Part shown: positions 2,069-61,000 of the stretch, piece by piece | Position numbering within the stretch: position 1 is the stretch's first letter | Layout: every line of letters starts with the position of its first letter | DNA from: Escherichia coli | GTDB taxonomy: Bacteria > Pseudomonadota > Gammaproteobacteria > Enterobacterales > Enterobacteriaceae | DNA: 64,000 nt | Direction: 5' to 3' (one strand) | Assembly (NCBI RefSeq): GCF_009931435.1 | Contig: NZ_CP043414.1 | Translations under genes and position numbers: made by a program | The notes under the pieces: generated by a model | Databases searched by the model: none | Told to the model about the DNA's origin: nothing | Seen by the model: only the letters and a program-made list of their open reading frames with translations

Positions 2069-4006
2069 TCAGTAACGACGTCCCCATTCCGTGGCGCTCA
2101 TCAACGTTGGTTTATCCCCCATGAAATAGCGGTAGTAAGCGTCATAAGCCAGCACGTTCTTCACATAACCGCGCGTCTCAGAGAACGGAATACTCTCGAC
2201 AAATGCCACTGCGTCGATACGACCAGCGCTGTTGCCAAGCCAGGTGCGCACTCGTCCAGGTCCGGCGTTATAAGCTGCTGAGGCGAAAATACGGTTATTG
2301 CCAAACTGCTGATAAACATATTGCAGGTAACTGGTGCCGATGTTGATGTTCGTTTCCGGATCCAGCAATTGCCCAGGGCTGCTGTAGCCAGGAATAGAGA
2401 ACATCTTCACCGTATGGGTCGCCGTACCAGGCATAATCTGCATCAGCCCGCTGGCCCCTACCGGTGACTTCACTTTCGGATTCCAGGCGCTCTCCTGACG
2501 GGCAATCGCCATCGCATAGCTTTGCGGGATCTCCTTACCGCTGGTGTAACGTTTGAAAAAATCGTTGTAGGCCAGCGGGAATCGTTCTTCCAGATGATCC
2601 CACAACTTCCCGGCGATCGTCGCCTGAACGCTGAGATCCCACCATTGGTTGTTGAAAGCATACCGTGCCAGCTGTGCCTGCTCTGTTTTTGACTTGCTCT
2701 TCACCAGATTGGCCCACTCGCTACGCGCGGTGTTATCGAGATTCCAGTACATCAACTCGCGCACGCGCGCCATCTCCGGCCCCTGAGTCAGGGTGCTGTC
2801 AACATTCTGCGGCGCTTTATCAATCTTCAGCTCATACTCTTCGCCGATGCGCTGTGCAGCAACCATCGGGTAGAAACCACGCTGTTGCATGAGTTGATGC
2901 AGAATCTCTTTCGCTTCAGCTTCACGTCCGCGTTCCAGCAATAAATCGGCCTGCCAGTAACGCCATTCATCTTTCTCTTTCGCTTCCATCGGCAAACGCG
3001 CCAGCCAGGTATTCAGGCCACGCCGATCGCCAGTACCAAGCGCCATCCGCACTCGGCGTTCAATCAACGAGGTGGATTGCGAGCGCATAATGGCGTCATC
3101 GCGCCATTTCGCCTGCTCGTCGGTGACATCGTTGCCCATCAAACGCCAGGCGACGATATCGCGCAGTTCCTGAATCTGATCTTCATTAAGCTGCTGTGCC
3201 TGAGCAAGCGATGGAATCATCAGCCGTGCATTTTCAGCATCCTGCCGTGCCACGCTGGCAAACGCCACCGCCGCCATTTGACGGGTAAAATCGGTCGCAC
3301 CGGTTGTACGCGCGAAGGTCAGTACCGTATTAGGGTTGTTCGCCAGAGAAATAATCGCCGAGGCGATAGTCTGGTAATCAGCAGGCATCTGACCTGCCAG
3401 CACTGTCACCAGACCCGTGTTACCCGCTTTCATCGCCAGACGGATACGCTCTAAATACGCCAGCGGATCTTGTTTGCCTGACGCACGCCAGACACTAAAT
3501 AACTTGTCACAAGCGTTAGGCTGGCTCTTGCCGGTTAGCCACAACTCTTTCGCCCCTTGCCAGGCTTCTTCACTCTGCCCGGTGTTCCATTTCGCATAGT
3601 AGTAATTACATTGCGCTTCGGTAGTTCCGGGCTTTTCCGGGCTAAAGGCTAACAAGCCACGCCAGTCTTCACGCCGCGCCAGTTCATTGACGAAACGAGA
3701 TTGCAGCGTGCGAGCGGGAGGAAGCGTGGGGTTAGCGCGAACAAAGTTAGTGACCGTCACCGCCGGTTGATTCATCAGGTCATCGGTGATCTGACGGTAT
3801 TCCAGGTAGGGATAAAGCGGATAATCTTTCAGTCCAGGCATCATTTGTTCGACCACATCCATTTGTCGATTATCCCAGGCCTGCTTAATTTGCGCGTAAC
3901 GGCTACGCTGCTCATCCAGTGAGTCGGCTCGCGCCACGCTGCTGACCGTCAGCAGACAGACACCGACAGCCAACAGCCGCCAGGTAACGTGTTTGGCTTT
4001 TTCCAC
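2069..4006 (-). CDS. slt: Soluble lytic murein transglycosylase Slt70
   Basis: 645-aa ORF with an N-terminal signal peptide and a C-terminal lysozyme-like domain (...ESAWNPKVKSPVGASGLMQIMPGTA...). Confidence 0.95.
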   Translation of the reverse strand: MEKAKHVTWRLLAVGVCLLTVSSVARADSLDEQRSRYAQIKQAWDNRQMDVVEQMMPGLKDYPLYPYLEYRQITDDLMNQPAVTVTNFVRANPTLPPARTLQSRFVNELARREDWRGLLAFSPEKPGTTEAQCNYYYAKWNTGQSEEAWQGAKELWLTGKSQPNACDKLFSVWRASGKQDPLAYLERIRLAMKAGNTGLVTVLAGQMPADYQTIASAIISLANNPNTVLTFARTTGATDFTRQMAAVAFASVARQDAENARLMIPSLAQAQQLNEDQIQELRDIVAWRLMGNDVTDEQAKWRDDAIMRSQSTSLIERRVRMALGTGDRRGLNTWLARLPMEAKEKDEWRYWQADLLLERGREAEAKEILHQLMQQRGFYPMVAAQRIGEEYELKIDKAPQNVDSTLTQGPEMARVRELMYWNLDNTARSEWANLVKSKSKTEQAQLARYAFNNQWWDLSVQATIAGKLWDHLEERFPLAYNDFFKRYTSGKEIPQSYAMAIARQESAWNPKVKSPVGASGLMQIMPGTATHTVKMFSIPGYSSPGQLLDPETNINIGTSYLQYVYQQFGNNRIFASAAYNAGPGRVRTWLGNSAGRIDAVAFVESIPFSETRGYVKNVLAYDAYYRYFMGDKPTLMSATEWGRRY

Positions 4007-4216
4007 AAGCGCATCCTCTAAGTGTCAATACATCAATGCAGCGTCATGCCGCGTAATAGATTTATGCTAACCAGTCATTGCCGTTTACGCCACGTTACGG
4101 ACACTTTTTTACTTTTACTGCGAGGGTGATCGACCGGCTGGGATTAGATAAGGAAACAGGCTACACTTCGCCTTTGAAAAATCATCATCACGATAAACAT
4201 AGAGGCGAAGTCCAAC

Positions 4217-5884
4217 GTGGCTCAATTCGTTTATACCATGCATCGTGTCGGCAAAGTTGTTCCGCCGAAACGTCATATTTTGAAAAACATCTCTCTGAGT
4301 TTCTTCCCTGGGGCAAAAATTGGTGTCCTGGGTCTGAACGGCGCGGGTAAGTCTACCCTGCTGCGCATTATGGCGGGCATTGATAAAGACATCGAAGGTG
4401 AAGCGCGTCCGCAACCGGATATCAAGATTGGTTACCTGCCGCAGGAACCTCAGCTGAACCCGGAACACACCGTGCGTGAGTCCATTGAAGAAGCGGTTTC
4501 TGAAGTGGTTAACGCTCTGAAACGTCTGGATGAAGTGTATGCGCTGTACGCCGATCCGGATGCCGATTTTGACAAGCTGGCCGCTGAACAAGGCCGTCTG
4601 GAAGAGATCATTCAGGCTCATGACGGTCATAACCTGAACGTTCAGCTGGAGCGTGCGGCGGATGCGCTGCGTCTGCCGGACTGGGACGCGAAAATCGCTA
4701 ACCTTTCCGGTGGTGAGCGTCGTCGCGTGGCGTTGTGCCGCCTGCTGTTGGAAAAACCAGACATGCTGCTGCTCGACGAACCGACCAACCACCTGGATGC
4801 CGAATCCGTAGCGTGGCTGGAACGCTTCCTGCACGACTTCGAGGGCACCGTGGTTGCGATTACCCACGACCGTTACTTCCTCGATAACGTTGCAGGCTGG
4901 ATCCTCGAACTTGACCGCGGTGAAGGTATTCCGTGGGAAGGTAACTACTCCTCCTGGCTGGAGCAGAAAGATCAGCGTCTGGCGCAGGAAGCTTCACAAG
5001 AAGCAGCGCGTCGTAAGTCGATCGAGAAAGAGCTGGAGTGGGTACGTCAGGGAACTAAAGGCCGTCAGTCGAAAGGTAAAGCACGTCTGGCGCGCTTTGA
5101 AGAGCTGAACAGCACCGAATATCAGAAACGTAACGAAACCAACGAACTGTTTATTCCACCTGGACCGCGTCTGGGCGATAAAGTGCTGGAAGTCAGCAAC
5201 CTGCGTAAATCTTACGGCGATCGTCTGCTGATTGATGATCTGAGCTTCTCGATCCCGAAAGGGGCGATCGTCGGGATCATCGGTCCGAACGGCGCGGGTA
5301 AATCAACCCTGTTCCGTATGATCTCTGGTCAGGAACAGCCAGACAGCGGCACCATCACTTTAGGTGAAACGGTGAAACTGGCATCTGTCGATCAGTTCCG
5401 TGACTCAATGGATAACAGCAAAACCGTTTGGGAAGAAGTTTCCGGCGGGCTGGATATCATGAAGATCGGTAACACCGAGATGCCAAGCCGCGCCTACGTT
5501 GGCCGCTTTAACTTTAAAGGGGTTGATCAGGGTAAACGCGTTGGCGAACTCTCCGGTGGTGAGCGTGGTCGTCTGCATCTGGCGAAGCTGCTGCAGGTTG
5601 GCGGCAACATGCTGCTGCTCGACGAACCGACCAACGACCTGGATATCGAAACCCTGCGTGCGCTGGAAAACGCCCTGCTGGAGTTCCCGGGCTGCGCGAT
5701 GGTTATCTCGCACGACCGTTGGTTCCTCGACCGTATCGCCACACACATTCTGGATTACCAGGATGAAGGTAAAGTTGAGTTCTTTGAAGGTAACTTTACC
5801 GAGTACGAAGAGTACAAGAAACGCACGCTGGGCGCAGACGCGCTGGAGCCGAAGCGTATCAAGTACAAGCGTATTGCGAAGTAA
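4217..5884 (+). CDS. ettA: ABC-F translation factor EttA (YjjK)
   Basis: 555 aa with two ABC cassettes (GLNGAGKST..LSGGERRR..LLLDEPTNHLD and GPNGAGKST..LSGGERGR..LLLDEPTNDLD). Confidence 0.95.
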   Translation: MAQFVYTMHRVGKVVPPKRHILKNISLSFFPGAKIGVLGLNGAGKSTLLRIMAGIDKDIEGEARPQPDIKIGYLPQEPQLNPEHTVRESIEEAVSEVVNALKRLDEVYALYADPDADFDKLAAEQGRLEEIIQAHDGHNLNVQLERAADALRLPDWDAKIANLSGGERRRVALCRLLLEKPDMLLLDEPTNHLDAESVAWLERFLHDFEGTVVAITHDRYFLDNVAGWILELDRGEGIPWEGNYSSWLEQKDQRLAQEASQEAARRKSIEKELEWVRQGTKGRQSKGKARLARFEELNSTEYQKRNETNELFIPPGPRLGDKVLEVSNLRKSYGDRLLIDDLSFSIPKGAIVGIIGPNGAGKSTLFRMISGQEQPDSGTITLGETVKLASVDQFRDSMDNSKTVWEEVSGGLDIMKIGNTEMPSRAYVGRFNFKGVDQGKRVGELSGGERGRLHLAKLLQVGGNMLLLDEPTNDLDIETLRALENALLEFPGCAMVISHDRWFLDRIATHILDYQDEGKVEFFEGNFTEYEEYKKRTLGADALEPKRIKYKRIAK

Positions 5885-5894
5885 TGCATAAAAT

Positions 5895-5925
5895 GCCGGA
5901 TGCGGCGCGCCAGCATCGCATCCGG
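5895..5925. terminator. REP-like hairpin downstream of ettA
   Basis: GCCGGATGCG ... CGCATCCGG inverted repeat starting 11 nt after the ettA stop; no clear U-tract, so it may be a REP element rather than a classical terminator. Confidence 0.4.
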
Positions 5926-5939
5926 TAATAGTTAAATGA

Positions 5940-6224
5940 TTAATGGGAGGCAAGTTCCCGGAAAAAGGCAGGATTTTCTTTAATTGTGGCAAGTACTTTT
6001 GCAGCCAATCCCGTAGGATTTCTTCGCTTCGATTCCCAGCTTTTAATGGTATCCACACTGGTTCCCAGAGCTTTTGCCATCTCACTTTGCGAAACGTTGA
6101 GTTGCTCACGAATAGCTTTAACATCCGCAATTTCGTAGCGGGTCACCCGTGCAGGTTCTTTTAAACCTTGTTTAATCTCGACAGCCTCTTCCAGAGAGGT
6201 TTTCAACTCATCAAAAAAACTCAT
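5940..6224 (-). CDS. HTH (XRE-family) antitoxin, HigA-like
   Basis: 94 aa from ATG 6222-6224 (track ORF starts at an upstream GTG, 6236); HTH segment ...IREQLNVSQSEMAKALGTSVDTIKSWESKRRNP...; GAGGT Shine-Dalgarno; starts 2 nt after the toxin stop. Confidence 0.7.
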   Translation of the reverse strand: MSFFDELKTSLEEAVEIKQGLKEPARVTRYEIADVKAIREQLNVSQSEMAKALGTSVDTIKSWESKRRNPTGLAAKVLATIKENPAFFRELASH

Positions 6225-6225
6225 T

Positions 6226-6558
6226 TTATACCTCACCTTTGAGCAGTTTCGTCAACTTCTTTAGTTGAGCTTTTTCCGTATCTGTCAGACTGTCTTTGGC
6301 ATTCTTCGGATAGGCCATAATCAAATAAATAATCTCTTCCGTCGCCAGAAAGTAAATTATTCTGACACTACCACTTTTTCCCTGTGAACCCGCAGCCATT
6401 CGGACTTTACGCAATCCACCAGTCTGCTGAATGAGATCACCTTTATCGGGAGTTCCGATGAGTTCTTTTTGCAATTCCTTTAATTCATCATCGGTTGCAA
6501 TCTGCTTGATCTGACGCGTAAACATTGGCGTCTCTATAAATATTATCGCCTTGCCCAT
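6226..6558 (-). CDS. Type II toxin, RelE/ParE superfamily (HigB-like)
   Basis: 110 aa from ATG 6556-6558 preceded by a GGGAGGGG Shine-Dalgarno; motif ...GGLRKVRMAAGSQGKSGSVRIIYF... typical of HigB/Gp49-type toxins; toxin-first gene order as in higBA. Confidence 0.65.
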   Translation of the reverse strand: MGKAIIFIETPMFTRQIKQIATDDELKELQKELIGTPDKGDLIQQTGGLRKVRMAAGSQGKSGSVRIIYFLATEEIIYLIMAYPKNAKDSLTDTEKAQLKKLTKLLKGEV

Positions 6559-6649
6559 TACCCCTCCCTGGCAGGTACATTGTACACCAAAATGGAGTAC
6601 TAAGTACACTTTTGAATCAGTAATATCACTCAACATCTTATAAAGATGA

Positions 6650-7882
6650 TTATCCCTGCTCCCCCATCATCTCCCGCACCAACTCCACGCAGCGCAGGAA
6701 ACGGCTGTCGTAATCGTCCTCTTCAACCCGCACAAATTCGATATTGTTCTCTTCCAGCATCTCCACCAGCAAGTTCTGGAACTCTTTGCGATCCACCGAA
6801 CTGCCGAGACTGCGTAAACCATCCGCCACCCACGGCGTGTTGTTCTCCAGCAGAATCACCAGATCAAAACGGTATTCATCGATCAGCGCCTGTACGAACG
6901 GATGCTCGCGCCCTTCGTACTTTTTGCAGAACGCCTGAGTTGTCACAAAATCGGTGTCGATAAACGCCACTTTATTGGCATATTTTACTGCAAAATCAAT
7001 ATATTGAGCGTGTCCAAGTGCGATTTTATCGTAGTCGGAATACTGCAATGCAATCTCATCGCCGCCAAGATGCGAAAAGACATAATCGCGACCATATTCC
7101 CATGCACTGGTAGTGTTGAAGATATTGGCAAGTTTGTTTACCAGGGTGGATTTACCGCTCGACTCGCCGCCGAGGATCGCCACGGTGCGCACAAAGAACG
7201 GCTTCACTTCGGTAGGAATATATTCCCAGTAGCGGAACGGATTTTCGCGGATCTGCGCACCACTGATACTCATAAAAGTACGTTTCGGATCGACCAACAC
7301 CGTTTCGATCCCCAGATGCTCCATATACTGCGGCGCGTCGGCTTCTTCCGAGGTGTAGATCAGATCCGGCTGGATCCCTTTTTCAGCCATAAACTTTTTG
7401 ATGCCGTTGCTCCACACATCCCAGCCATGCGGATACGGCTCCATGCCCTCTTCGTTGAAGGCATGAATGCGAATATTTTTCTGATATTTAAAAGTTTGCA
7501 ATAACCAGCGCAGACGATCCGGCACCGTGGGCTGCTGCGACATGGCGCTGTCTTCGAACAACGCGCGGTCGCGGGTATCGTCAAAGCCCATAATGATATG
7601 CAGCTCGTCAACCTGACTACAGGCACGCTGGATAAGGTAGATATGTCCGGTATGCAGCGGGTAAAACTTACCGAATACAACACCAATAGTTTTCTTCTGC
7701 CGGGGAAATTCAAGTCCCAAATAACGGTGCAACGCCTCCAGCTTTTGCGCGCTGGGGCTTTTAATTTTGGCATTCAGTAACTGGCTTAAATACCCTTTGG
7801 TCATACCGCTGGCATCAGCCACCTGCTGTAGCGTACAGCCCTGTTGCTTGATGGCAGTTTTCAGATAATCAAATGACGACAT
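6650..7882 (-). CDS. nadR: NadR: transcriptional regulator / NMN adenylyltransferase / ribosylnicotinamide kinase
   Basis: Start placed at MSSFDYLKTAIKQQG... (410 aa) with a GGAGGGAG Shine-Dalgarno; HTH, GVVFGKFYPLHTGH nucleotidyltransferase motif and GGESSGKST P-loop. Confidence 0.9.
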   Translation of the reverse strand: MSSFDYLKTAIKQQGCTLQQVADASGMTKGYLSQLLNAKIKSPSAQKLEALHRYLGLEFPRQKKTIGVVFGKFYPLHTGHIYLIQRACSQVDELHIIMGFDDTRDRALFEDSAMSQQPTVPDRLRWLLQTFKYQKNIRIHAFNEEGMEPYPHGWDVWSNGIKKFMAEKGIQPDLIYTSEEADAPQYMEHLGIETVLVDPKRTFMSISGAQIRENPFRYWEYIPTEVKPFFVRTVAILGGESSGKSTLVNKLANIFNTTSAWEYGRDYVFSHLGGDEIALQYSDYDKIALGHAQYIDFAVKYANKVAFIDTDFVTTQAFCKKYEGREHPFVQALIDEYRFDLVILLENNTPWVADGLRSLGSSVDRKEFQNLLVEMLEENNIEFVRVEEDDYDSRFLRCVELVREMMGEQG

Positions 7883-7902
7883 ATCTCCCTCCGTATCTCT
7901 CA

Positions 7903-9285
7903 TTATAAGTCGTCGAACACGCTAAGCGCGTCGGAGAGTTTTTTAACGCCAAAAATCTGCATCCCTTCCGGCGCTTTTTTCGGCACGTTGGCTGCCGGAA
8001 CAATCGCCCGCCGAAAACCATGTTTCGCCGCTTCAGAAATCCGCTCCTGGCCGCTGGGCACCGGGCGGATCTCCCCTGCCAGCCCGACTTCACCAAACAC
8101 CACCAGATCCTGCGGTAGCGGTCTGTCGCGCAGGCTGGAAACCATCGCCAGTAGTAACGCTAAATCGGCACTGGTTTCCGTCACCTTCACGCCGCCGACC
8201 ACGTTCACAAATACATCCTGATCGGCCATTTGCAGACCACCGTGACGGTGCAACACCGCCAGCAGGATCGCCAAACGGTTTTGCTCCAGCCCCACTGCCA
8301 CGCGGCGCGGATTCGCCATCATCGAGTGATCGACCAGCGCCTGGATCTCCACCAGCAGCGGACGAGTTCCTTCCCACACCACCATCACTGAGCTGCCGGA
8401 GGTCACTTCATCGCCGCGACTTAAGAAAATTGCCGAAGGGTTACTGACTTCACGCAGCCCCTGCTCGGTCATCGCAAATACGCCCAGTTCATTTACCGCG
8501 CCGAAGCGGTTTTTATGGCTGCGCAGGGTGCGGAAACGGGAGTCGGCATCGCCGTCCAGAAGCACCGAGCAGTCGATACAGTGTTCCAGCACTTTAGGGC
8601 CTGCCAGCGAACCATCTTTGGTTACGTGCCCCACCATGACAATCGCCACACCGCGCGTTTTGGCGAAGCGCGTCAGATAAGCCGCCGTTTCACGCACCTG
8701 TGCCACGCTGCCAGGCGATGATTGTACATCCGCCATATGCATCACCTGGATGGAGTCAATGACCATCAGCTTCGGTTGCTCTTCTTCGGCAATCAGGCAG
8801 ATCTGTTCGATGCTGGTTTCCGACAACATATTGAGATTGTCAGTCGGCAGGCCGAGGCGATGAGCGCGCATTGCCACCTGTTGCAGCGACTCTTCGCCAG
8901 TGACATATAGCGTTTTCATCTGCTGCGCCAGTTTGCACAGCGTTTGCAGTAGCAGCGTGGATTTCCCGGCTCCTGGGTTACCGCCAATCAGAATAGCGCT
9001 TCCTGGCACTACGCCACCGCCTAATACGCGGTCGAACTCTTTAAATCCGGTGGAAAAACGCGGCAACTCCTCAAGGCTGATATCGGAGAGTTTCTGGACT
9101 TTTGCCACCCCGGCGCTACCGGCATAGCCACTGAGACGCTCGTTACGCGCCACCGTTGGCGACGCAGCAAGACGCACCTCGGTGATGGTGTTCCAGGCAT
9201 GGCAGGCGCTGCACTGCCCCTGCCAGCGCGGATAATCGGCCCCGCATTCATTACAAACAAAGGCGCGTTTTGGAGCTTTTGCCAC
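7903..9285 (-). CDS. radA: DNA repair protein RadA (Sms)
   Basis: Zinc-finger CNECGADYPRWQGQCSACHAWN, Walker A GGNPGAGKST and a Lon-like C-terminal domain; GTG start chosen to give MAKAPKRAF... (460 aa). Confidence 0.9.
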   Translation of the reverse strand: MAKAPKRAFVCNECGADYPRWQGQCSACHAWNTITEVRLAASPTVARNERLSGYAGSAGVAKVQKLSDISLEELPRFSTGFKEFDRVLGGGVVPGSAILIGGNPGAGKSTLLLQTLCKLAQQMKTLYVTGEESLQQVAMRAHRLGLPTDNLNMLSETSIEQICLIAEEEQPKLMVIDSIQVMHMADVQSSPGSVAQVRETAAYLTRFAKTRGVAIVMVGHVTKDGSLAGPKVLEHCIDCSVLLDGDADSRFRTLRSHKNRFGAVNELGVFAMTEQGLREVSNPSAIFLSRGDEVTSGSSVMVVWEGTRPLLVEIQALVDHSMMANPRRVAVGLEQNRLAILLAVLHRHGGLQMADQDVFVNVVGGVKVTETSADLALLLAMVSSLRDRPLPQDLVVFGEVGLAGEIRPVPSGQERISEAAKHGFRRAIVPAANVPKKAPEGMQIFGVKKLSDALSVFDDL

Positions 9286-19516: not shown

Positions 19517-19735
19517 ATGGCGGATGCAGCCTACGGTTCGGCACAGACCTGTAGGCATGATAAGACGCGTCAGCGTCGCATCAGGCATTGTGCGCCAACT
19601 GCCGGATGCGGCGTGAACGCCTTATCCGGCCTACGGTTCGGCACAGACTTGTAGGCATGATAAGACGCGTCAGCGTCGCATCAGGCATTGTGCGCCGACT
19701 GCCGGATGCGGTGTGAACGCCTTATCCGGCTTACG
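19517..19735. repeat. Tandemly duplicated REP/BIME cluster (two ~100-bp units)
   Basis: Unit CCTACGGTTCGGCACAGAC(C/T)TGTAGGCATGATAAGACGCGTCAGCGTCGCATCAGGCATTGTGCGCC(A/G)ACTGCCGGATGCGG(C/T)GTGAACGCCTTATCCGGC occurs twice, about 19529-19628 and 19629-19730. Confidence 0.6.
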
Positions 19736-27530: not shown

Positions 27531-27617
27531 GCGAAGGTGGCGGAATTGGTAGACGCGCTAGCTTCAGGTGTTAGTGTCCTTACGGACGTGGGGGTTCAAG
27601 TCCCCCCCCTCGCACCA
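27531..27617 (+). tRNA. leuQ: tRNA-Leu (anticodon CAG), copy 1
   Basis: 87-nt GCGAAGGTGGCGGAATTGGTAGACGCGCTAGCTTCAGGTG...CCCTCGCACCA with encoded CCA; long variable arm; anticodon CAG. Confidence 0.95.
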
Positions 27618-27645
27618 AAAACCACGTTGATATTGCTCGCACTGG

Positions 27646-27732
27646 GCGAAGGTGGCGGAATTGGTAGACGCGCTAGCTTCAGGTGTTAGTGTTCTTACGG
27701 ACGTGGGGGTTCAAGTCCCCCCCCTCGCACCA
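27646..27732 (+). tRNA. leuP: tRNA-Leu (anticodon CAG), copy 2, with a C-to-T change at position 48
   Basis: Identical to copy 1 except GTTCTTACGG instead of GTCCTTACGG in the variable arm. Confidence 0.95.
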
Positions 27733-27765
27733 AACGAGGCGATATCAAAAAAGTAAGATGACTGT

Positions 27766-27852
27766 GCGAAGGTGGCGGAATTGGTAGACGCGCTAGCTTC
27801 AGGTGTTAGTGTCCTTACGGACGTGGGGGTTCAAGTCCCCCCCCTCGCACCA
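27766..27852 (+). tRNA. leuV: tRNA-Leu (anticodon CAG), copy 3
   Basis: Identical to copy 1. Confidence 0.95.
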
Positions 27853-60896: not shown

Positions 60897-60914
60897 GTAT
60901 TTAGCGCGGTGCGA

Positions 60915-61000
60915 ATGTGCGCCAACACACCCGCACCGCTCATCACAATCCCTATTTCACGAGAATAGTAATCATGACTGACACGCATTCTATTGCACAA
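60915..61000 (-). ncRNA. symR: Expected position of the SymR antisense sRNA (boundaries not determinable from sequence)
   Basis: Placed only by analogy: in K-12 SymR is encoded antisense to the symE 5' UTR and start codon; no independent sequence evidence. Confidence 0.25.

Follow-up and report, generated by a model that had tools for sequence, protein, structure and literature searches.

A putative HigB2/HigA2-type toxin-antitoxin operon between nadR and ettA of Escherichia coli and its apparent decay in K-12

What kind of toxin-antitoxin (TA) pair lies between nadR and ettA in this Escherichia coli chromosome, and was it gained here or lost elsewhere? An earlier note on the locus had described a HigB/HigA-like pair inserted where K-12 has only a short ettA-nadR spacer. 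Within the window analyzed here, i.e., the whole stretch of 64,000 nucleotides, the locus is in all likelihood a chromosomal type II TA operon of the sort known in Vibrio cholerae as HigB2/HigA2, composed of a PF06296 toxin and a NadS/YiaG-like XRE antitoxin. What the analysis established directly is the families of the two proteins, the conservation of the catalytic residues, the order and coupling geometry of the genes, an operator-like motif that is conserved among homologues, and the distribution of the module in the population.

Both genes of the pair were found to be real by open reading frame analysis and sequence reading; they occupy the minus strand downstream of nadR, between the two neighbors that had been named correctly (Table 1). 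The toxin gene comes first, and a single nucleotide (base 6225) separates its TAA from the ATG of nadS, which places the latter at the second base past the stop, in agreement with the closely spaced arrangement described before. Because the gap is only 1 nt, translation of nadS is probably coupled to that of the toxin. The strong ribosome-binding site noticed upstream of the toxin is also present. The upper boundary of the pair had been set at 6636, which is merely the first ATG of a mechanical 136-aa open reading frame; we place the toxin start at 6558, since the ribosome-binding site, the RefSeq annotation of an identical locus, and all homologues agree on it. The encoded protein, which includes GGLRKVRM and GSVRIIYF, carries the RefSeq name “type II toxin-antitoxin system RelE/ParE family toxin.” A REP-like hairpin lies where nadS and ettA converge and is a probable terminator common to both. 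The standard promoter/terminator scan returned no terminator 3' of nadR.

Table 1. Features of the nadR-ettA region, numbered by position in the 64,000-nucleotide window
Feature	Position	Strand	Remarks
ettA	4217-5884	+	convergent with nadS
REP-like hairpin	5896..5925	.	CCGGATGCG ... CGCATCCGG; inverted repeat, 9-nt arms, 100% complementary
Antitoxin gene nadS	5940..6224	-	ATG 6224-6222, TAA 5942-5940, 94 aa; RefSeq WP_000007436.1
Toxin gene	6226..6558	-	ATG 6558-6556, TAA 6228-6226, 110 aa; RefSeq WP_000513551.1
Shine-Dalgarno-like sequence for nadS	6231..6237	-	GGTGAGG, within final toxin codons; direct sequence reading
Segment absent from K-12-type alleles	6255..6649	-	net 392 bp; alignments
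Toxin Shine-Dalgarno sequence	6561..6568	-	GGGAGGGG, 2 nt 5' of ATG; direct sequence reading
Proximal operator candidate	6575..6587	-	GTGTACAATGTAC, GTAC-N3-GTAC; holds -10-like TACAAT (6584-6579)
Distal operator candidate	6597..6609	-	GTGTACTTAGTAC, GTAC-N3-GTAC; overlaps -35-like TGTACT (6608-6603)
nadR	6650-7882	-	upstream neighbor, same strand as pair

The toxin matched the Pfam family PF06296 (“RelE”), which contains HigB2, over residues 13 to 106 (40.2 bits, cut-off 27, E=4.6e-10). Pfam searches gave no match of the toxin to the canonical HigB models PF05015 and PF09907 at E<=0.1 and none to the ParE model PF05016, and the Gp49 model PF05973 remained at 19.6 bits, under its cut-off of 23.9. 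A phmmer search of the PDB gave significant matches to V. cholerae HigB-2 chains only (E=7.5e-17). An AF2 model built with 45 homologues (pLDDT 79.6) displayed a strand, two helices, three strands, and a C-terminal helix (E6-9, H11-20, H23-35, E50-54, E66-72, E76-84, and H93-106). When this model was compared with the PDB using Foldseek, ranks 1 to 11 were all V. cholerae HigB2 (VcHigB2), with TM scores of 0.74 to 0.86, while those against ParE, YafQ, and RelE structures were only ~0.5. Alanine replacement of R51, R64, Y82, or K84 cuts VcHigB2 activity 170- to 3000-fold (PMC5416850). The aligned residues of the E. coli toxin are R53, R66, Y83, and K85, all of which are invariant in the 45-sequence alignment. 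Judged by sequence and predicted structure, the toxin is a predicted RelE-fold mRNA interferase of the V. cholerae HigB2 group and is not a canonical HigB, Gp49, or ParE protein. The proposed pairing of a RelE/ParE-superfamily toxin with an XRE-type HTH antitoxin was thus right, but its allocation to the canonical HigB or Gp49 family was not; the suggested profile searches (PF05973-type HigB/Gp49 and HigA) led to PF06296 and NadS/YiaG-like models instead. A relationship of the toxin to the CRISPR ring nuclease Crn1 and CARF proteins was also considered and was judged to be noise or a distant fold resemblance (NCBIfam E=0.004, 16.9 bits versus a cut-off of 125; PDB E ~0.14; PADLOC E=0.0025).

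The antitoxin belongs to the NCBIfam “NadS family” (NF041265), which it matches along its entire length (residues 1 to 94 of 94, 182.6 bits, cut-off 60). It also matches Pfam HTH_3 (E=3e-10) and, under the cut-off, the YiaG model NF007481 (E=1.6e-12), while the MqsA models TIGR03830 (38 bits, cut-off 61.8) and PF15731 (20.5 bits, cut-off 30) were reached by the C-terminal HTH part only. Residues 33 to 91 align with HigA-2 in the PDB (E=2.2e-6), and the N-terminal third does not align with V. cholerae HigA2 (VcHigA2). Among homologues, the recognition-helix region TSVDTIKSWExKRRNPTGLAAKVL is almost invariant. On these sequence grounds, the antitoxin is a HigA2/YiaG-like protein with a C-terminal XRE helix-turn-helix. 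The AF2 model of NadS, which is of low confidence (pLDDT 63.6), predicts a helix at residues 3 to 18, disorder at 22 to 31, and a helical bundle at 35 to 93; the modeled N-terminus is compatible with, though not proof of, a neutralizing segment that folds upon binding, as in HigA2.

The AGTACT-type repeats noticed upstream of the toxin resolve into four GTAC tetranucleotides that form two GTAC-N3-GTAC units, which were found by sequence reading and pattern counting, a generic repeat finder having given none. The starts of the two sites are 22 nt apart, and TGTACT lies 18 nt upstream of TACAAT. The pattern GTACNNNGTAC occurs exactly twice in the window, at 6585-6575 and 6607-6597, both in the spacer between nadR and the toxin gene. 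Of 45 homologous loci, 41 carry GTAC-N3-GTAC in the 110 nt that precede the toxin start; the background frequency (4 hits in 250 kb) would predict 0.0018 per 110 nt. The consensus across loci reads wGGTGTAC-wwT-GTACaCyA, in toxin upstream regions that are otherwise unalignable, and its first GTAC together with the spacer constitutes a -10-like hexamer, TACnnT. When the window and 40 loci were scanned for promoter-like matches, the best match overlapped the motif in 36 of these 41 sequences. The two-site layout recurs in four Serratia and Enterobacter loci (L005, L016, L019, and L011). Because the motif is found upstream of 41 of the 45 homologous pairs and overlaps the likely -10 element, the two palindromes very probably serve as an autoregulatory operator, which strengthens, at the sequence level, what had been offered as a possibility. 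The promoter position remains putative, since the standard promoter/terminator scan detected none upstream of the toxin and a looser scan yielded just a weak sigma-70 match there (8/12, with a poor -35).

Two characterized antitoxins offer a frame for these sites. VcHigA2 binds TGTACGC-N5-GCGTACA across its own -10 element (PMC11006873), and MqsA, whose HTH is weakly similar to that of NadS, binds AACCT-N3-AGGTT (PMC4894380), a geometry matching that of the GTAC-N3-GTAC candidate. Both cases agree with a role of the sites as operator, as does the near invariance of the NadS recognition-helix region. The DNA-binding details of NadS cannot be transferred directly from V. cholerae, because NadS departs from VcHigA2 at three of four base-contacting positions (D58, K61, and S62 in NadS versus R68, E71, and N72 in VcHigA2) and because the half-sites are separated by N3 here versus 9 nt between TGTAC and GTACA in V. 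cholerae.

By homology to the V. cholerae HigB2/HigA2 system (VcHigBA2), the 110-aa toxin would enter the ribosomal A site and cut translating mRNA by means of R53, R66, Y83, and K85, and the N-terminal ~30 residues of NadS would neutralize it by folding onto it. NadS would dimerize through its C-terminal HTH domain and bind the two palindromes, which overlap the -35-like and -10-like elements, so that the operon would repress itself; upon loss of the labile antitoxin, the freed toxin would arrest translation. Toxicity, neutralization, DNA binding, promoter position, and physiological role are all putative, and we found no experimental work on the E. coli nadR-ettA pair in the searchable literature.

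Whether the pair was gained or lost can be read from the K-12 allele. The spacer between nadR and ettA in K-12, which had been described only as short, measures 307 bp and is not empty: it keeps 29 nt from the 3' end of the toxin gene (27/29 identical), followed by nadS codons 1 to 38, which are 93.9% identical, while the adjacent nadR is 94.7% identical. That remnant and nadR have diverged to a similar extent is consistent with descent in place. In K-12, extra REP copies or REP-derived sequence replace the 3' half of nadS, which encodes the HTH domain. The net 392 bp missing from K-12-type alleles cover the nadR 3' flank, the promoter/operator region, and the toxin gene up to about codon 101, and the distance from the nadR stop to the nadS ATG is accordingly 33 nt in K-12 versus 425 nt here. 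An intermediate was found in strain CFSAN061771, which has a full-length nadS, no toxin, and a deletion junction identical to that of K-12. This common junction points to one single 392-bp deletion that removed toxin and promoter together. Since the K-12 spacer still holds the end of the toxin gene and 38 nadS codons, K-12 is, by sequence comparison, a deletion derivative, and the difference reflects loss in K-12 rather than gain here; the remnants and the intermediate allele also imply that the module was present at nadR-ettA before the K-12-type allele arose. The alignment that had been proposed to confirm an insertion and its boundaries therefore revealed the opposite.

Among 5426 complete E. 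coli genomes, 672 (12.4%) possess the toxin gene, always as one chromosomal copy; these carriers include ST131, UPEC, and other strains of phylogroup B2. The HTH-encoding half of nadS is present in 729, so that by subtraction about 57 have a full nadS without toxin. The K-12-type 307-bp spacer was found in 3764 genomes (69%), and no part of the module was detectable in 464. Four of the strains sampled, 042 among them, have lost the remnant ATG, and the module is wholly absent from TUM14697. Decay would thus have begun with the 392-bp deletion of toxin and promoter, continued with the replacement of the HTH half of nadS by REP elements to give the K-12 state, and ended with loss of the start codon or of the entire remnant.

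With every stage of decay represented across E. coli, one may ask if the carriers themselves retain a functionless relic, with an attenuated toxin and an antitoxin that persists only because a cell would not survive losing it before the toxin. Seven E. coli alleles were compared, in which the toxin differs by 7 synonymous and 3 non-synonymous changes. One copy is frameshifted, so that the toxin appears to be dispensable; several other species likewise have homologous toxins that are split or interrupted (L054, L055, L057-L059, and L061). Against a relic, the catalytic residues of the carriers' toxin are intact and the changes mostly synonymous, NadS does not vary among the seven alleles at the protein level, and the 7 sites that do vary in the 91-nt upstream spacer all lie outside the two 13-nt operator candidates, although this last observation is not significant alone (~0.1 by chance). 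We consider a relic rather unlikely; it would in any case be compatible with, and not exclusive of, a HigB2/HigA2 operon.

A role as an anti-phage abortive-infection system, kept for defense, had been suggested for such modules. Some RelE/ParE-superfamily type II TA modules are indeed defense associated (PMC11980606), and the window contains an hsd/mcr/symE immigration-control region ~45 to 55 kb away. The pair itself lies among housekeeping genes, outside any defense island, and about 88% of genomes, after a single loss of its toxin, never reacquired it. In PADLOC-DB v2, neither protein matched a known or candidate defense system beyond noise (toxin versus CARF models, E=0.0025 to 0.0047; antitoxin versus generic HTH models), and the toxin family was found on 889 plasmid records versus only 7 phage-collection records, all of them distant. 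A defense function is thus improbable, and the suggestion found no support in these searches.

Another idea is that chromosomal NadS (full length, or perhaps even the 55-aa K-12 stub) confers anti-addiction immunity against plasmid HigB2-type toxins, which are 80 to 83% identical to the chromosomal one. The K-12 stub, 33 nt downstream of nadR and reportedly expressed, keeps just the putative toxin-neutralizing N-terminus. Were this so, small mobilizable plasmids of Enterobacterales could be lost without cell death. Such a role of the stub is weakened by destruction of its ATG in 042 and the three other strains, by its annotation by PGAP as a pseudogene in several strains, and by the predominance of amino-acid-changing substitutions in K-12-type stubs, and we regard anti-addiction immunity as quite improbable.

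When one genome per species was scanned for relatives of the preferred HigB2/HigA2-type module, 57 loci were obtained, from Serratia, Enterobacter, Pectobacterium, Xenorhabdus, Photorhabdus, Halomonas/Vreelandella, Thioalkalivibrio, and others. A nadS homologue directly follows the toxin in all 56 loci with sequence past the toxin (the 57th ends inside the toxin gene); its identity ranges from 32 to 86%, and from 68 to 86% when two distant loci (32%) are set aside. None of the 57 loci adjoins nadR or ettA, and the one-genome-per-species scan returned no locus at nadR-ettA from Escherichia, Salmonella, Citrobacter, or Klebsiella. The toxins 80 to 83% identical to that of the window are encoded on 5- to 7-kb Col-type mobilizable plasmids in an identical 333+1+285-nt layout, and, because of these relatives, a mobile, horizontally acquired origin of the module is plausible from sequence, as had been proposed. 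A recent islet in a spacer that was empty in an ancestral, K-12-like state is a different matter. The plasmid relatives, the restriction of the toxin to just 12% of E. coli genomes, and the fact that no locus analyzed other than those of E. coli and Escherichia fergusonii carries the pair beside nadR or ettA would be in its favor, but the toxin and nadS remnants in K-12 argue against it, as does the toxin-less intermediate, and the shared junction also speaks against an independent partial insertion as the source of the K-12 remnant. With K-12 and 69% of complete genomes carrying the deletion derivative, recent insertion at an otherwise empty site is very improbable. E. fergusonii ATCC 35469 has the pair at nadR-ettA and is 99 to 100% identical to the window, including the flanks; it was rejected as an outgroup for dating the acquisition, being closer to the window than K-12 is (94.7 to 97.3%).

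The published label “ParE-3,” the RefSeq name “RelE/ParE family,” the CDD superfamily assignment given in PMC7232551, and the distant fold matches to ParE structures (TM ~0.5) might suggest that the toxin instead poisons DNA gyrase, as ParE does. This is extremely improbable given the empty Pfam ParE search, the retention of each of the four RelE-like residues that serve catalysis in VcHigB2, and the wide gap between the eleven top structural matches, all HigB2, and ParE. On the evidence of sequence and model, the name “ParE-3” would be misleading for what is probably a HigB2-type mRNase.

The pair is an ordinary one that is already annotated and published. RefSeq annotates it as “RelE/ParE family toxin” and “nadS,” and PGAP makes these calls in hundreds of genomes. 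Bustamante and Vidal described it as TA30, parE-3/yiaG-2, a “genomic islet” at nadR-ettA in AIEC NRG857c and UPEC CFT073 that is absent from K-12 (PMC7232551). PF06296 toxins with YiaG-like antitoxins have also been described (PMC11980606), and the structure, catalysis, and operator binding of the HigB2/HigA2 family have been worked out in V. cholerae. As a discovery, the locus therefore has little weight, and our check adds modest though useful points, the misleading name “ParE-3” being one. The nadS gene of K-12, whose expression was reported as a new finding (PMC12350097), encodes a small protein that is the N-terminal stub of a decayed antitoxin. The locus provides a clean natural series of TA decay, from the intact pair through toxin deletion and the exchange of HTH for REP sequence to start-codon or complete loss. 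Finally, a conserved GTAC-N3-GTAC operator candidate with its -10 hexamer is now defined for the whole NadS subfamily.

Of the known systems, VcHigBA2 (PDB 5JAA, 5JA8, and 8A0X) resembles the E. coli pair in its toxin-first order, in a toxin that is 39% identical with a common fold and the same four catalytic residues, in an antitoxin whose C-terminal XRE-HTH aligns over residues 33 to 91 and may be preceded in both by a non-globular N-terminal segment, and in a palindromic operator (a candidate one in E. coli) with TGTAC/GTACA half-sites over the -10 region. It differs in that the operator is a single TGTACGC-N5-GCGTACA, whereas the E. coli pair has two GTAC-N3-GTAC copies 22 nt apart, and in that VcHigA2 has other residues at three of its four base-contacting positions and an N-terminus unalignable with that of NadS. 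The E. coli pair also lies among core genes, unlike HigBA2 of V. cholerae, which is located in the superintegron.

The RelE/NadS modules of Col-type plasmids, exemplified by Citrobacter pRHBSTW-00053_5, Shigella boydii p600690_6, and 5.2-kb plasmids of Yersinia ruckeri, share with the chromosomal pair a 333-nt toxin gene, a 1-nt gap, and a 285-nt nadS, as well as 80 to 83% amino acid identity of the toxin, an upstream GTAC-N3-GTAC, and identical RefSeq names. In contrast to the chromosomal pair, they lie beside rep/mob genes, with plasmid maintenance as their expected role, and mostly have one operator copy rather than two.

MqsR/MqsA of E. coli is likewise toxin first, and its antitoxin has a weakly similar C-terminal XRE-HTH (TIGR03830, E=1.2e-9; PF15731, E=5.6e-4). 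The mqsRA promoter carries two palindromes. The MqsA operator, AACCT-N3-AGGTT, is a 5-N3-5 palindrome comparable to the candidate described here (PMC4894380). The systems differ in that the NadS matches stay under the MqsA family cut-offs and the toxin here is of PF06296, not of the MqsR family PF15723. A further distinction is the N-terminal zinc-binding domain of MqsA, which NadS presumably does not have.

Rts1 HigB/HigA and phage Gp49-like pairs (PF05973) resemble the locus in their toxin-first order, RelE-superfamily toxin, and HTH antitoxin, but the toxin has no canonical HigB match and falls short of the Gp49 cut-off (19.6 bits < 23.9). Rts1 HigB is without the C-terminal helix that is present in HigB2 (PMC5416850), and a corresponding helix is predicted here in the toxin model (H93-106).

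Within E. coli, the 55-aa NadS of K-12 (WP_000007444.1) has codons 1 to 38 in common with the antitoxin of the window, but it is without an HTH domain, in place of which it has REP-derived codons, and without a toxin partner; it is a PGAP pseudogene in several strains and has no ATG in others. YiaG, a paralogue-like orphan of K-12, has the same type of HTH as NadS.

The K-12 W3110 gene product named NadS (1144-1311 in locus L001) has 55 residues, consisting of NadS residues 1 to 38 and a REP-encoded tail, and it has no HTH. In E. coli strains 042, 2011C_4247, AR_0119, and E300082 (loci L072 to L075), the start of the nadS stub is destroyed (ATGAGT to ATAAG-), and several stub copies are flagged as pseudogenes by PGAP. 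E. coli CFSAN061771 (L002) represents the allele type with a full nadS and without the toxin gene. Between the ettA and nadS genes of this strain, the REP region contains an IS1397-family element (L002 1-1152).

Decay affects the toxin gene as well. In E. coli TUM13773 (L067), a 1-nt deletion at the equivalent of window position 6375 causes a frameshift after residue 61, and NadS is intact; the decayed partner is the toxin, not the antitoxin. In several other species (L054, L055, L057, L058, L059, and L061), the homologous toxin was matched in two pieces, being either frameshifted or broken by ~0.3 to 1.7 kb (L057 and L058), and the nadS homologue of L049 has an in-frame stop. Therefore, module decay is common outside E. 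coli too. A module sub-lineage with a ~95-nt gap between toxin and nadS is found in an Enterobacter metagenome-assembled genome, Lelliottia, and Pseudenterobacter (L018, L020, and L051, respectively). The upstream regions of these three loci lack the candidate operator motif GTAC-N3-GTAC, and regulation of the sub-lineage may be different.

In L088, a Logan contig (DRR394969) compared with window positions 5885-7882, identity to the window is no more than 95.8% in nadR but reaches 99.0 to 100% in the neighboring spacer, toxin, nadS, and ettA, which suggests a recombination breakpoint at or close to the nadR/module boundary. The type strain of Escherichia fergusonii, ATCC 35469 (CU928158.2, 4573071-4578367; L092), aligned to window positions 3440-8725, shares the gene order radA-nadR-toxin-nadS-ettA-slt and carries the pair at the same site. 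Its flanking genes are 97.5 to 99.3% and its module 99.7 to 100% identical to those of the window, while K-12 nadR and ettA, at 94.7 to 97.3%, are farther from the window than those of E. fergusonii. Judged from these identities, this closeness looks like interspecies exchange of a chromosomal segment or atypically low divergence here. At ≥99% identity, the plasmid collection yielded a single match, PLSDB record NZ_CP134663.1 (hit H111), which was rejected as a true plasmid copy; the record is a 4.9-Mb E. coli chromosome filed among plasmids.

Other features located in the window
Feature	Position	Strand	Remarks
HTH ORF, 87 codons	12128-12391	+	between lplA and deoD
naRNA4 (REP-derived nucleoid-associated RNA), two tandem	19554-19631, 19654-19731	-	above Rfam threshold
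Three tRNA matches	27531-27849	+	annotated tRNA-Leu in related strain
SymR antitoxin RNA	60903-60979	-	Rfam, 88.9 bits; adjoins symE

The symE/SymR locus lies inside the hsd/mrr/mcr immigration-control region. In this part of the window (roughly 51.8 to 64 kb), the near-identical strain 2020CK-00188 aligns in patches only; it matches the window at 99.1 to 99.2% otherwise. The HTH ORF is annotated in 2020CK-00188 as WP_000566247.1, whereas codon 22 of the window copy is an in-frame stop. It may be another decayed toxin-antitoxin-related gene, because the lplA-deoD position is occupied in K-12 by the hipA-like yjjJ.
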